A stretch of DNA of 45,740 nucleotides, taken from NCBI GenBank assembly GCA_964609585.1, contig CAZSRA010000007.1, forward strand, positions 1 to 45,740, written 5' to 3'. Below are positions 23,602-27,329 of the stretch, piece after piece (position 1 is the stretch's first letter; each line of letters opens with the position of its first letter). The notes beneath the pieces are model-generated. The model searched no databases, was not told the DNA's origin, and saw nothing but the letters and a program-made list of their open reading frames with translations. Made by a program: the position numbers and the translations under genes. The DNA is from an uncultured Candidatus Saccharimonadales bacterium. Its GTDB lineage: Bacteria > Patescibacteriota > Saccharimonadia > UBA4664.

Positions 23602-24735
23602 CTATCCCGTCTCTGAATGCTCAAGCGCACGAATAAATAATTCAATATCTTTAGTTTGCAAAACTGGATCTTCAAGGCCTGCATGAAAACGAACGAGTGT
23701 ATTTTTCGGCGCATCAAGCCGACTGCTTAATTCGGTTGGCTGAAATGGCAGAACGAGACTGTGGGTCCCGCCCCATGACTCTCCAATCTTAAATACGGAT
23801 AGTGTAGAAAATAACCTATCAAGCTCAGCGTCTGTATATACTCTATCGAGCTCTACGCTGAATAAACCGTTCGTACCTGTGATGTTGCCTTTCTGACCAT
23901 CTACGAAGTAAATCCTCGGTATCTTTTTGGAATTTTTCATAGAATGCAGTAATCTCCTGGCGTTATTCCCATGTGCAAGTAGTCGTACTTTTAGAGTTTC
24001 CAGTCCACGCTGCACGAGCATAGCTGAAAAGGGTGATACAGTGTAGCCGTGAATCCGGTGGTAATAGCTTAGTTTTTTAAACAGGGTTTCCGACCTTGTG
24101 GTGACTGATCCCATAAATACGTCACTATAGCCAGCCGGATATTTTGTGAGACTGAGAATACTTATATCTACCCCATAATCCAGTGGATGCGACAAAACAC
24201 CGGCTGCCCATGTGTTATCTTCTGATGTTAATATTTCTCGTGATTTAGCTACTTCGACGACTGCATCTATATCAGTTACTTCAAATGTGGCTGATCCTGG
24301 AGATTCAATATGAATGAGCTTGGTTGTGTCGCGAATGGCCCGTTTTAGTGTGGAGAGGTCCTTTACGGAATACATGTCGTATGAGATTCCGAAGCGCTCC
24401 TGTAAATACTGCGCATATCGCCGAACAGGTGCATAGACAATATCCGGAATAAGCCAATGATCGCCCGAAGATAGCAACGCACTAAGCGCAATCAACGCAG
24501 TTAACCCACTGGGAAACAATAGCGTATGGCTACCATGCTCAAGTGCAGAAATAGAATCCTGCAGCTTTTGTAATGTCGGGTTTCCCTGGAGGCCATAGCC
24601 ATTGTCTACCCCGCTCACCACTTGGTTGATAAGCGTTGGTTTTCCGGCGCCTGCCGCTCTGTAGTCATGCAAACTGTCGAAGTACAGGCTAGTGGTTAGT
24701 TGTAATGAACGAGTAGTGTGATCGTTATTTCCCAT
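23602..24735 (-). CDS. metC: Cystathionine beta-lyase-like PLP enzyme (Cys/Met metabolism family)
   Basis: YGLQGNPT, LFPSGLTA, IESPGSATFEV, DNTWAAG, SLTKYPAGYSD (PLP lysine), IGESWGG..SL, VRFHAGLED. Confidence 0.85.
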   Translation of the reverse strand: MGNNDHTTRSLQLTTSLYFDSLHDYRAAGAGKPTLINQVVSGVDNGYGLQGNPTLQKLQDSISALEHGSHTLLFPSGLTALIALSALLSSGDHWLIPDIVYAPVRRYAQYLQERFGISYDMYSVKDLSTLKRAIRDTTKLIHIESPGSATFEVTDIDAVVEVAKSREILTSEDNTWAAGVLSHPLDYGVDISILSLTKYPAGYSDVFMGSVTTRSETLFKKLSYYHRIHGYTVSPFSAMLVQRGLETLKVRLLAHGNNARRLLHSMKNSKKIPRIYFVDGQKGNITGTNGLFSVELDRVYTDAELDRLFSTLSVFKIGESWGGTHSLVLPFQPTELSSRLDAPKNTLVRFHAGLEDPVLQTKDIELFIRALEHSETG

Positions 24736-24738
24736 GAC

Positions 24739-25773
24739 CTACTTCCACTTTCCGAGGAACGCTTTTTCATGCTGTCGCACAACTTTATTCGCCCCGAGAA
24801 TGCCGTGTTGTGTCATGTCGGGCGAGTATCTACTCGCCGGTACGATACGGCCGAGTGCTTCAGCCATTGACCGAACACTATGTGGTGCTCCGCCGCAGCA
24901 GATACCAATGTAGTTAACGCCATACTCCTGCGCTTTAAGTGCGAAATCTGCCATTTCGTTACGCGTGCACAAAAAGTGATCAAGCGACAGCGGGAACGCT
25001 CGTTCGCCTTTGTATTTAAGATATTGAAAGGCCGGGAATTGAGGTGTGGTGCGATACGGAACGGGTTGGGCTGCGATTGGACAAGATACGGCCTTTCGCA
25101 GCTTCTTGAGCAGCGGAAGCATTGTATTGGGGCCGGCTATGCAGTTAAACCCGACTACATCAGCACCTTTTTCTTCAAGGATTCGACAGCCTTCAATCCA
25201 GTCGTATCCATCTTTGCTCTGAGGGTACGTAGTTGCAAAAGTGATAAATGCTGGTAAGTTATATTTCTTGATAACTTCCAGGGCGATCAGCGCCTCTCCA
25301 ACATATTCAATGGTTTCGGCAATAATGAAGTCGACCCCTTCTTCTGCTGCCCATCGTACTTGCTCGTCATACATCTGGCGCACTTCCTCGGAACTTTGTT
25401 CTTTATTGTTGGGGTCATAGACCCAAGTGTTGCAAATATTACCGGCTACAAGCGCATTACCCTCTTCTGCAATTTCCCTTGCAATGCGAACAGCCTGTCT
25501 ATTGAGTCGTTCGAGATCTTTTTCACGGTCGATAACTCGCAATTTATCTCGATGAGCATAATACGTAAACGCTACCATTACTTCACTGCCTGCTCGCAAG
25601 AATTCACGGTGTAACTCGCGGAGTGCATCTGGATAGTCGAGCACGACTTCGGGCACATATGCGCCAGCCTTTAGATAACCCCGGCGTTCAAGTTCAAATA
25701 AATATCCTTCGGCTCCTAGCACAGCACCCTTTTGCAGCCGTTCTAGTATGTTTTGCTTTACTGGTGATGTCAT
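24739..25773 (-). CDS. Homocysteine S-methyltransferase, betaine-homocysteine methyltransferase (BHMT)-like
   Basis: EGYLFELERRGYLKAG, LHREFLRAGS, Zn ligands GFNC and GICCGGAPH; start reassigned to ATG 25773 after GAAAGGA. Confidence 0.92.
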   Translation of the reverse strand: MTSPVKQNILERLQKGAVLGAEGYLFELERRGYLKAGAYVPEVVLDYPDALRELHREFLRAGSEVMVAFTYYAHRDKLRVIDREKDLERLNRQAVRIAREIAEEGNALVAGNICNTWVYDPNNKEQSSEEVRQMYDEQVRWAAEEGVDFIIAETIEYVGEALIALEVIKKYNLPAFITFATTYPQSKDGYDWIEGCRILEEKGADVVGFNCIAGPNTMLPLLKKLRKAVSCPIAAQPVPYRTTPQFPAFQYLKYKGERAFPLSLDHFLCTRNEMADFALKAQEYGVNYIGICCGGAPHSVRSMAEALGRIVPASRYSPDMTQHGILGANKVVRQHEKAFLGKWK

Positions 25774-25802
25774 AGAAATCCTTTCATACGTTATCGAACG
25801 CA

Positions 25803-25830
25803 ATTAAATAAACCGGCCCTAGGCCGGTTT
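25803..25830 (-). terminator. Attenuator terminator upstream of the methyltransferase
   Basis: Minus strand AAACCGGCC-TAG-GGCCGGTTT then ATTTAATT. Confidence 0.75.
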
Positions 25831-25849
25831 GCGTTCAAGTATTTTGGGA

Positions 25850-25924
25850 CTATGAAAGCGGCCTAGGGCGAGACATGGGCATAGGCATCATCACAGTTTG
25901 GGCGTTATGGTGTTTTGTTTGCAT
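25850..25924 (-). CDS. Met-rich leader peptide 1, MQTKHHNAQTVMMPMPMSRPRPLS (24 aa; not in the ORF track)
   Basis: Read directly from the reverse complement; 4 Met in 6 codons; codons 19-22 contain GCCCTAGGCCG, the exact complement of the terminator 5' arm and loop. Confidence 0.8.
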   Translation of the reverse strand: MQTKHHNAQTVMMPMPMSRPRPLS

Positions 25925-25961
25925 GAGTAAATCTCAAGAGCTGTCGATAGTTGTTGTTAGT

Positions 25962-26375
25962 CTACGGGTGCAGCTTTAATCCGTGGACGATTTTGTCGAA
26001 GGTTTTACGATCTGCACGTATGGCTATCCCAACGATAGTAAATGCGCTGTCCCTTAGTGTCTTGACGACTGCTCGATTATCTATATCGTTGTCTGTTTTG
26101 AACATTCCTTCCGCATAAATTGCCGGTTTTACTCCACGATTTAGAGCCCGGTCTTTTGTCCGGATAAGGTGCTCTTGTGGTGCGGCATAGATAAAGACGG
26201 GTTGTACGATCAGTGGCAAATATTTGTGGTTGGTGGCGTCTTCATAGTCCTCTCCTATGCTTTCGGGCGCTGATGCCGCTATTCCAGTTGCCAAGAAGGC
26301 TGTGACATTGAGCTTCTGCCAGTCCAGTAGGTCGTCCCGGATCACGATGCCTACTTTAGTATCATGTGTTGCCAT
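25962..26375 (-). CDS. DUF2000 family protein (peptidyl-tRNA hydrolase II-like fold)
   Basis: KVGIVIRDDLLDWQKLNVTAFLATGI, YEDA...YLPL..QP, ...DKIVHGLKLHP; SD AAAGGAG. Confidence 0.8.
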   Translation of the reverse strand: MATHDTKVGIVIRDDLLDWQKLNVTAFLATGIAASAPESIGEDYEDATNHKYLPLIVQPVFIYAAPQEHLIRTKDRALNRGVKPAIYAEGMFKTDNDIDNRAVVKTLRDSAFTIVGIAIRADRKTFDKIVHGLKLHP

Positions 26376-26393
26376 AGCGAACTCCTTTTACAA

Positions 26394-26421
26394 TAAAAAA
26401 CCTCCGTTTTGCAGCGGAGGT
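26394..26421 (-). terminator. Attenuator terminator upstream of DUF2000
   Basis: Minus strand ACCTCCG-CTGCAAAA-CGGAGGT then TTTTTATT. Confidence 0.85.
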
Positions 26422-26451
26422 AGTTGTCGACTTGATTTATTCTACGACAAA

Positions 26452-26514
26452 CTAAAACTCCGCCTCACGGTGGGGCATCATTGCCATCATCATATTGCGG
26501 GTATTGTTAGTCAT
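26452..26514 (-). CDS. Met-rich leader peptide 2, MTNNTRNMMMAMMPHREAEF (20 aa; alternative in-frame ATG at 26523)
   Basis: 5 Met in 6 codons; 3' end GCGGAGTTTTAGTTTGTCG pairs with CGACAACTACCTCCGC, which includes the terminator 5' arm. Confidence 0.85.
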   Translation of the reverse strand: MTNNTRNMMMAMMPHREAEF

Positions 26515-26521
26515 TGGCTTC

Positions 26522-26550
26522 ATTCTATGTTGCTAGCGGTATTTTATCAA
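26522..26550 (-). promoter_or_regulatory. Promoter of the Met operon, giving a leaderless or near-leaderless leader-peptide mRNA
   Basis: TTGATA-N17-TAGAAT, 7 nt upstream of ATG 26514. Confidence 0.7.
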
Positions 26551-26597
26551 GTGATCGATATCTAAAACCTCAACATCTTCAAGGCCAACTAAAAGTT

Positions 26598-26621
26598 CTG
26601 ACATTGTATATACAATGTCAG
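26598..26621. promoter_or_regulatory. Perfect 24-bp palindrome, probable AbrB/MazE autoregulatory operator
   Basis: CTGACATTGTATATACAATGTCAG directly upstream of the mazE remnant. Confidence 0.7.
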
Positions 26622-26638
26622 TAACCGGAGGACATAAA

Positions 26639-26923
26639 ACGAAAACTACAACCTAAGTAAAAATGTGGGGCAATAGCCTGGCGATCCGCATTCCTTCTCG
26701 GGTAGCCCGAGATCTAGGGCTAACAATCGATAGCCAGATAGAAATCGCCAGCGATGGCAGCACCGCCACCATAAAACGCGAAGAGAACCCCCGCCTATCC
26801 TTAGAAGAAATTAGTCAAACCCCTCGACATACTATCCGACCATTGCAAAAGAGTTCGAATGAAAGCCGTTCAAGGGCACCAAGACACTATTTTTTTATGC
26901 TTCCACTAGACATGAATTGTTGA
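26639..26923 (+). pseudogene. mazE: Decayed AbrB/MazE/SpoVT antitoxin gene; no toxin gene follows
   Basis: GGAGG-N7-ACG AAA ACT ACA ACC TAA GTA AAA ATG TGG GGC AAT AGC (start appears as ACG, in-frame TAA); WGNSLAIRIP..A..LGL motif; similarity lost after LSLEE. Confidence 0.7.
26839..26881 (+). repeat. Direct repeat copy 1 (43 bp)
   Basis: ACCATTGCA-AAAGAGTTCGAATGAAAGCCGTTCAAGGGCACCA; differs from copy 2 by 1 indel and 2 substitutions. Confidence 0.9.
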
Positions 26924-26987: not shown

Positions 26988-27329
26988 TTAAAATAGTTTG
27001 CTTCCCAGCGGCACTTCGCGTTCGGGCTGCGACAGAACCACATTGCCATGTGCATCCGCGAAACCAAGCGTAAGGCTTTCTGATATGAACGGACCTATCT
27101 GCTTGGGCGGAAAGTTCACAACTCCCATCACGAGCCGCCCGATCAACTCTTCTTTTGTATAATGTTTGGTTATTTGAGCCGACGAGCGCTTTAAGCCAAT
27201 TTCAGAGCCGAAGTCGATCGTAAGTTTATAGGCTGGTTTTCTTGCTTGAGGAAAATCCTCAGCGGCAATAATTTTCCCGGTTCGAATATCTATTTGCTCA
27301 AAGTCTGCGTAAGTGATGGTATTGTTCAT
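26988..27329 (-). CDS. csaA: tRNA-binding protein CsaA/Trbp111 (homologous to the MetRS C-terminal domain)
   Basis: DFEQIDIRTGKII, KPAYKLTIDFG, SSAQITKHY, VVNFPPKQIGPFISESLTLG. Confidence 0.92.
   Translation of the reverse strand: MNNTITYADFEQIDIRTGKIIAAEDFPQARKPAYKLTIDFGSEIGLKRSSAQITKHYTKEELIGRLVMGVVNFPPKQIGPFISESLTLGFADAHGNVVLSQPEREVPLGSKLF

Follow-up and report, generated by a model that had tools for sequence, protein, structure and literature searches.

Can a leader peptide attenuator sense methionine (Met)? For this amino acid, and no other, classical leader-peptide attenuation works against itself: without Met-tRNA, translation of the sensing ORF cannot even begin. The question is raised by an operon in the 45,740-nucleotide contig CAZSRA010000007.1 (assembly GCA_964609585.1) of an uncultured Candidatus Saccharimonadales soil bacterium, analysed here over its full length and called the window. 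Two short Met-rich leader open reading frames (ORFs), each followed by an intrinsic terminator, lie in this operon, and we refer to them as leader 1 and leader 2. A sequence-only reading of the stretch had proposed that such attenuators escape the conflict by defaulting to ON, with no effective protector hairpin in either leader. We found that both elements are well supported as Met-responsive, ribosome-mediated attenuators. On the second part of the question, the account that we favour, and to which we give about an even chance, is that these are two Met-codon attenuators in series, with default-ON behaviour a property of one structural subtype and not a general solution for Met attenuators.

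The minus strand carries, in order, a promoter, leader 2, its terminator, a DUF2000 gene, leader 1, its terminator, a methyltransferase gene and a MetC-like lyase gene (Table 1). Both leaders have what marks a trp-type attenuator: a short Met-rich ORF ahead of biosynthetic genes, a terminator and an exclusive antiterminator. The Met codons of leader 2 read ATG ATG ATG GCA ATG ATG (26493-26476), and its stop codon TAG (26454-26452) falls within the 5' strand of the antiterminator; the Met codons of leader 1 read ATG ATG CCT ATG CCC ATG (25891-25874). The terminator stems have 9 base pairs (bp) in leader 1 (25830-25810) and 7 bp in leader 2 (26421-26400), a T-rich run follows each of them, and both antiterminators take up the terminator 5' arm. 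With the protector written as 1:2, the antiterminator as 2:3 and the terminator as 3:4, the anatomy and the in-silico states described below suggest the following. A ribosome stalled at the run of four or five AUG codons would leave region 2 free to pair with region 3, giving read-through. The stop codon falls within region 2 or adjoins it, and a ribosome that gets that far would cover region 2, so that the terminator would form. No known leader, riboswitch or T-box was found in the window with Rfam at gathering or permissive thresholds, where only a tRNA was matched; the best matches within 25700-26700 reached 15-19 bits, far under the thresholds.

The same arrangement was found in relatives. 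The nearest relatives of the methyltransferase gene come from metagenome-assembled genomes labelled Saccharimonadales or Patescibacteria. Met-run ORFs lie directly upstream of the gene at eight loci (L001 MMMVM, L003 MTAMMM, L004 MMTMMM, L005 and L007 MMAMMM, L081 and L082 MMQMM, L089 MMTPM), and all eight precede a terminator with a 5' arm able to pair back onto the ORF end. On other contigs, DUF2000 genes of 83-91% identity (L165, L167, L168) have Met-run leaders and terminators upstream as well; no Met-run leader was found at DUF2000 loci of 74-80% identity (L169-L174). With the two leaders of the window this makes a set of 13 Met leaders, every one of which stops at or inside an antiterminator strand, directly before a terminator and Met-related genes. 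A Met-run ORF in L034 (2592-2681) was dropped, being out of frame within a 338-aa gene, and that of L059, far downstream of the gene, lies outside the set. In more distant relatives, the leader position of the orthologous methyltransferase gene holds an S-adenosylmethionine (SAM)-I riboswitch (RF00162, above the Rfam threshold) and a terminator. Judged from the sequences, the sensor is swapped at an orthologous gene, riboswitch in some genomes and Met leader in others. It is the 11 relatives with Met-run leaders, together with the riboswitch at the same site, that identify these elements as Met-sensing and ribosome-mediated.

The design resembles that of E. coli trpL and the thr, his and leu leaders, which likewise combine a short ORF containing a run of the cognate codon, exclusive 1:2, 2:3 and 3:4 hairpins, an intrinsic terminator and a stop codon sited so that the finishing ribosome blocks region 2. 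It differs from them in that Met is sensed, the host is Saccharimonadia/Patescibacteria-like, the leaders are apparently leaderless and no Rfam leader family matches. In the literature searched we found no established Met leader-peptide attenuator, apart from the tentative metL of Streptomyces lividans. Met-specific leader peptides are absent from a comparative study of Actinobacteria (PMC1262725), and metL, the only candidate, is weak and terminator-less (PMC8079986). Located upstream of metNIQ, metL is similar in that its ORF, as predicted for the present leaders, starts at the transcript 5' end, and in being proposed as a Met-dependent leader. Its Met codons are scattered (MCRRMC) and it has no clear terminator, whereas the present leaders have runs of four or five AUG codons and clean terminators and antiterminators, conserved over 13 loci. 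The SAM-I (S-box) riboswitch also controls the orthologous methyltransferase gene through an intrinsic terminator, and its logic, read-through by default with the effector driving termination, is the one that the sequence-only reading had proposed here. Unlike the leaders it binds SAM directly by RNA, with no ORF or ribosome, and no aptamer was found in the window with Rfam.

That proposal had seen only weak protector pairings, and the pairings it named are indeed present. In leader 1, GCCTA (25886-25882) pairs with TAGGC (25865-25861) over 5 bp; in leader 2, a local hairpin of about 3 bp follows the Met run, either CCG (26470-26468)/CGG (26462-26460) or CCACC/GGCGG around an A.C mismatch. Their weakness is not that of the protectors, which we found to be longer interrupted hairpins that beat shuffled sequences. 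In leader 1, a 7-bp outer helix, ACUGUGA/UCAUAGU (25897-25891/25855-25849), encloses GCCTA/TAGGC and brings the protector to 15 bp and about -13.5 kcal/mol (z score -2.13; 8 of 200 shuffles fold equally well). In leader 2, the CCG/CGG site lies inside the protector span but outside the minimum free energy (MFE) pairing. Here the 5' partner is ACCCGC, which precedes the Met run and binds GCGG(AG); flanking helices lengthen the pairing into a 26-bp hairpin of about -22 kcal/mol (z = -3.16; 2 of 200 shuffles). When only the sequence upstream of region 2 was shuffled and the upstream pairing of region 2 was scored, native values exceeded shuffled ones both in leader 1 (0.72 against 0.46, p = 0.01) and in leader 2 (0.79 against 0.61, p = 0.035). 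Pairing was above the shuffled expectation in nine of the ten leaders tested, with comparable results for the four E. coli attenuators. Just past the Met run, relatives carry a compact GC hairpin (L003 UCUCCC-UUCA-GGGAGG, L167 CCGC...GCGG); at this site in the alignment, leader 2 and its nearest homologue L165 have CCACC...GGCGG with the A.C mismatch. Both of them have the upstream ACCCGC as an alternative region 1, which, in these two closely related sequences, looks more like a protector maintained than one lost.

The antiterminator of leader 2 consists of GGCGGAG/CUCCGCU and UAGUU.GUCG/CGAC.AACUA. That of leader 1 has 16 bp (25866-25819) when the transcript has reached the terminator loop and -26.1 kcal/mol in full, with part of the terminator 3' arm included; its CGGCCUAGGGC strand covers the terminator 5' arm, the loop and part of the 3' arm. 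The palindromic GCCCUAGGCCG/CGGCCUAGGGC antiterminator is common to leader 1, L001 and L089. Measured against the protectors above, antiterminators of -20.6 kcal/mol (leader 2) and -15.3 to -16.5 kcal/mol (leader 1, at the terminator-loop stage) do not bear out a weak protector facing a much longer antiterminator in leader 2, and bear it out by half in leader 1.

Folding of the naked leaders had been named as a check, with a stable 1:2 hairpin as the refuting outcome, and this is what we observed. With the T-tract and a few downstream bases included, the MFE and centroid structures of both whole leaders consist of protector plus terminator (-38.8 and -35.8 kcal/mol; z = -3.1 and -2.6). At full-length equilibrium, the probability of the terminator, P(T), in the naked RNA was 0.03 for leader 1 and 0.72 for leader 2, where protector plus terminator is lower by 8.6 kcal/mol; it was 0.00 for L001 and 0.005 for L089. 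Use of this value as the sole criterion was dropped, as stalled E. coli leaders stay at P(T) 0.5-0.8. Equilibrium folding of the completed RNA predicts attenuation poorly and does not reproduce their antitermination.

Nascent prefixes, that is transcripts ending at the terminator loop before the terminator 3' arm exists, were folded for a first ten leaders, the two of the window among them. The energy of the antiterminator state minus that of the protector state came to -5.3 (leader 1), -2.4 (leader 2) and, for seven of the eight others, -1.4 to -5.7 kcal/mol; the four E. coli leaders (trp, thr, leu, his) gave 0 to -0.7 kcal/mol. Of all 13 Met leaders, 11 have an antiterminator state 1.4-5.7 kcal/mol lower than the protector state, while the E. 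coli leaders have their minimum in the protector state. The order of strength sensed by the sequence-only reading, an antiterminator at least equal to the protector, thus holds at the nascent decision point and sets the Met leaders apart from the classical ones. The fraction of terminator 5' arm sequestered was the same in the naked and stalled states of leader 1 (0.50 and 0.50) and nearly so in leader 2 (0.81 and 0.85). Such similarity was found in 11 of the 13 Met leaders (nine of the first ten), L007 and L167 being the exceptions; in E. coli the naked and stalled values were 0.08 and 0.71 for trp, 0.44 and 1.00 for thr, and 0.26 and 0.67 for leu. L167 follows textbook trp-like logic (0.02 naked, 0.86 stalled). 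With a ribosome at the stop codon the values were 0.20 in leader 1, 0.29 in leader 2 and 0.02-0.40 across the first ten, and in E. coli 0.03 for trp, 0.01 for thr and leu and 0.69 for his. Direct-path barriers from protector to antiterminator were 11.9 kcal/mol in leader 1, 9.3 kcal/mol in leader 2 and 5-17 kcal/mol in relatives.

Co-transcriptional folding was followed with a home-made coarse master-equation model (local minima, findpath barriers, Arrhenius rates, one nucleotide per step), the candidate structures coming from constrained refolding. Untranslated E. coli trp, thr and his gave P(T) of at least 0.99 at k0 = 2e5 (k0 in per second throughout), as known super-attenuation requires. 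Both window leaders gave 0.00 when stalled and 1.00 with a ribosome at the stop codon. Naked leader 1 was run at 20-100 nucleotides (nt)/s in three 5' contexts. At k0 = 2e5 and 100, 50 and 20 nt/s its P(T) was 0.03, 0.00 (0.19 if the RNA begins at the leader ATG) and 0.00, and that of leader 2 was 1.00, 0.54-0.61 and 0.26. At 50 nt/s the values for leaders 1 and 2 were 0.01 and 0.02 with k0 = 2e6, and 0.96 and 1.00 with k0 = 2e4. In the trajectory of leader 1, competing local hairpins in the Met-codon region left the large protector unpopulated. Read-through after failed initiation, the core of the earlier proposal, is thus plausible in the model for leader 1 (0.00-0.19 at k0 of 2e5 and 2e6), which makes default-ON plausible there; for leader 2 (0.02-1.0) it is unproven, with a leaning toward the classical design.

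Across the 13 Met leaders the untranslated state was predicted to be OFF in five, ON in four and parameter-dependent in four. The OFF group (L003, L005, L007, L082, L167) all have strong protectors; L003, L007 and L167 were OFF at all three k0 values, and L005 and L082 were run at k0 = 2e5 only. The ON prediction applied to leader 1, to L001 and L089, which are structurally related to it, and to L168; L004, L081, leader 2 and L165, the homologue nearest to leader 2, were parameter-dependent. Since strong-protector Met leaders occur in the same clade, default-ON is not required for Met sensing, and these five relatives speak against the idea of a general way around the initiator problem.

On the favoured account, both leaders have genuine protectors which, unlike those of the E. 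coli attenuators, do not exceed the antiterminator in thermodynamic strength when the decision is made. In leader 1 the palindromic CCUAGG core would allow the antiterminator to outcompete protector plus terminator, most likely giving read-through if the leader is untranslated. Leader 2 would be kinetically balanced, its outcome set by the speed of folding relative to that of transcription, and OFF at full equilibrium.

The strongest competitor, which we nevertheless consider rather unlikely, takes both leaders to be of the classical trp type: a 1:2 hairpin, the first to form, makes RNA polymerase pause and shields region 2, an untranslated leader super-attenuates, and the initiator problem is tolerated, one initiation being set against four or five elongator Met codons. 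The protector-plus-terminator structures of both whole leaders are what it expects, as are barriers of 9-12 kcal/mol, termination of both leaders at k0 = 2e4 and the predicted behaviour of L003, L005, L007, L082 and L167. It fits leader 1, L001 and L089 poorly, where, after region 1 has refolded, the antiterminator at -26 kcal/mol outweighs protector plus terminator and the naked equilibrium P(T) is 0.03, 0.00 and 0.005, and local hairpins kept the leader 1 protector from forming in the kinetic trajectory. Less probable again is the earlier proposal in full, that neither leader has an effective protector and that read-through on failed initiation, as on stalling, evolved to escape dependence on Met-tRNA. 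The specificity of protectors of -13.5 and -22 kcal/mol, the 8.6 kcal/mol by which protector plus terminator prevails in leader 2 at equilibrium, and the ACCCGC that leader 2 and L165 share as a replacement region 1 all argue against it, even though 11 of the 13 Met leaders have similar naked and stalled nascent states, both window leaders read through at k0 = 2e6 and leader 2, compared with L167 and L003-L007, has a degenerate local hairpin (A.C mismatch). With five relatives predicted OFF when naked, Met sensing evidently works without default-ON. Finally, Met-rich ORFs that arose by chance or encode small proteins, beside ordinary terminators without sensing, are very improbable: leader 1 has no clear Shine-Dalgarno (SD) sequence, leader translation is read from the sequence, and the L034 ORF was an artefact, but 13 independent Met-run ORFs ending at or in an antiterminator strand, relatives with a SAM-I riboswitch in that position and structured segments with z of -2.6 to -3.1 tell against coincidence.

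The predicted leader starts bear on the initiator problem itself. The predicted -10 hexamer of the window (TAGAAT, 26527-26522) overlaps the first ATG of leader 2 (26523). Transcription therefore probably begins near 26515/26514 and the real start of leader 2 is probably ATG 26514, from which a leaderless 20-aa peptide would be made. Eleven of the 13 leaders lack an SD sequence and have only 6-10 nt between the end of the predicted -10 hexamer and the start codon, the short spacing being seen in relatives L001, L003, L004, L005, L007, L081, L082, L165, L167 and L168; the structural genes, unlike the leaders, have AAGGAG-type sites. The Met leader peptides look leaderless, a kind of leader peptide known in Actinobacteria (PMC8079986). 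The default-OFF relatives are likewise predicted to be leaderless. Leaderless initiation depends strongly on initiator tRNA, so the initiator problem would, if anything, be sharper here. Leader 1 starts 37 nt past the DUF2000 stop codon, without a promoter of its own or a clear SD sequence, and its ribosomes may be supplied by re-initiation after DUF2000.

Several observations weigh against our favoured account. Folded through its downstream outer stem, leader 1 again gave protector plus terminator as MFE and centroid. Barriers of 9-12 kcal/mol mean that a protector formed first could persist, and leader 1 does flip to termination in the kinetic model, though only at k0 = 2e4. The model is wrong for E. 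coli leu (naked 0.15) and underpredicts the antitermination of stalled trp, thr and leu; because of these failures it is indicative only, with a bias, if any, toward termination. As leader 1 lies inside the operon, with DUF2000 ribosomes finishing 37 nt upstream, a truly naked leader 1 would be unlikely in vivo. The leader states are purely in silico: no RNA-seq runs with the leader sequence were found, the matches being DNA soil metagenomes only.

Table 1. Features of the Met operon of the window and, in the last two rows, of related loci (numbering of each locus).
Feature	Position	Strand	Description
Predicted sigma-70-like promoter of the operon	26522..26550	-	TTGATA, 17-nt spacer, TAGAAT; 10/12 matches
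Leader 2 ORF	26452..26523	-	MKPMTNNTRNMMMAMMPHREAEF (MMMAMM); homologous leaders in L165, L167, L168, L003-L007
Leader 2 protector (1:2)	26444..26514	-	26-bp interrupted hairpin, -21.5 to -22.5 kcal/mol
Leader 2 antiterminator (2:3)	26410..26467	-	18 bp, -20.6 kcal/mol
Leader 2 intrinsic terminator	26394..26421	-	ACCTCCG, 8-nt loop, CGGAGGT, TTTTTT; stem -11.0 kcal/mol
DUF2000 (PF09391) gene	25962..26375	-	under leader 2 only
Leader 1 ORF	25850..25924	-	MQTKHHNAQTVMMPMPMSRPRPLS (MMPMPM); homologues in L001 and L089
Leader 1 protector (1:2)	25849..25897	-	15-bp interrupted hairpin, -13.1 to -13.8 kcal/mol
Leader 1 antiterminator (2:3)	25815..25869	-	GCCCUAGGCCG pairs with CGGCCUAGGGC
Leader 1 intrinsic terminator	25799..25830	-	AAACCGGCC, TAG, GGCCGGTTT, ATTTAATT; stem -14.1 kcal/mol
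Outer stem around leader 1 terminator and T-tract	25796..25836 (arms 25829-25836, 25796-25803)	-	GAACGCAA / TTGCGTTC
Homocysteine S-methyltransferase gene (PF02574)	24739..25773	-	under both leaders
Cys/Met-metabolism pyridoxal phosphate enzyme gene	23602..24735	-	cystathionine beta-lyase-like (MetC-like); last gene of the operon
SAM-I riboswitches in distant relatives	L095 2349-2449; L097 2321-2428; L098 1902-2009; L099 2339-2445; L105 1892-2008		
DUF2000 genes under Met leaders in relatives	L165 540-800; L167 1741-2001; L168 1741-2001		

The outer stem of leader 1 covaries with that of L001 (GAATACA/TGTATTC), and its equivalent in L089 is CCAAGAACG/CGTTTTTGG; it can form only after read-through. 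In methyltransferase-based scans, a DUF2000 or MetC homologue adjoined the methyltransferase gene at none of 160 related loci, so the composition of the window operon is unusual. The DUF2000 protein is a homologue of the uncharacterised structure 2GAX.

At related DUF2000 loci, a 10-codon ORF, MRPTARAPMQ, is conserved upstream of the gene in L171 (~915-950) and L172 (~895-930). Its N-terminus is similar to the MRPMANDTR... of L165, and it may be a decayed Met leader. L166 (~1900-2000; DUF2000 of 88% identity) retains a Met run, MDMMMFLII..., and has no terminator 5' arm; its AUGAUGAUG run is able to pair with a downstream AUCAUC instead, which may be another mode of control. Upstream of the leader 2 promoter, a perfect 10+10 inverted repeat, CTGACATTGTATATACAATGTCAG (26598-26621), separates it from a MazE/AbrB-like ORF (26663-26923, plus strand); it is a candidate operator or bidirectional terminator. 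Immediately before the Met operon, the minus strand also encodes a CsaA/Trbp111-type tRNA-binding protein (26988-27329), a homologue of the methionyl-tRNA synthetase C-terminal domain.

A broader and more tentative possibility, which we put forward as somewhat unlikely, is that Saccharimonadia carry a previously undescribed class of Met-specific leaderless attenuators in two designs, one protector-dominated and default-OFF, the other palindrome-cored (leader 1, L001, L089) with an antiterminator ground state. If so, the ribosome would act as corepressor in the palindrome-cored, default-ON type, where only a ribosome that completes the leader imposes termination, and this type would be insensitive to failed initiation when Met-tRNA is scarce. 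The initiation conflict may explain why Met genes are usually controlled by SAM riboswitches, T-boxes or protein repressors. The occurrence of DUF2000 under a Met leader in the window and in three relatives hints at a role in methionine metabolism and places this uncharacterised family in a methionine regulon. A lineage of the candidate phyla radiation does have attenuators built on Met codons, in place of a SAM-I riboswitch at the methyltransferase gene, and with protector-strong and antiterminator-dominated versions in one family, nature provides the cases needed to test whether super-attenuation really is a handicap in sensing Met.

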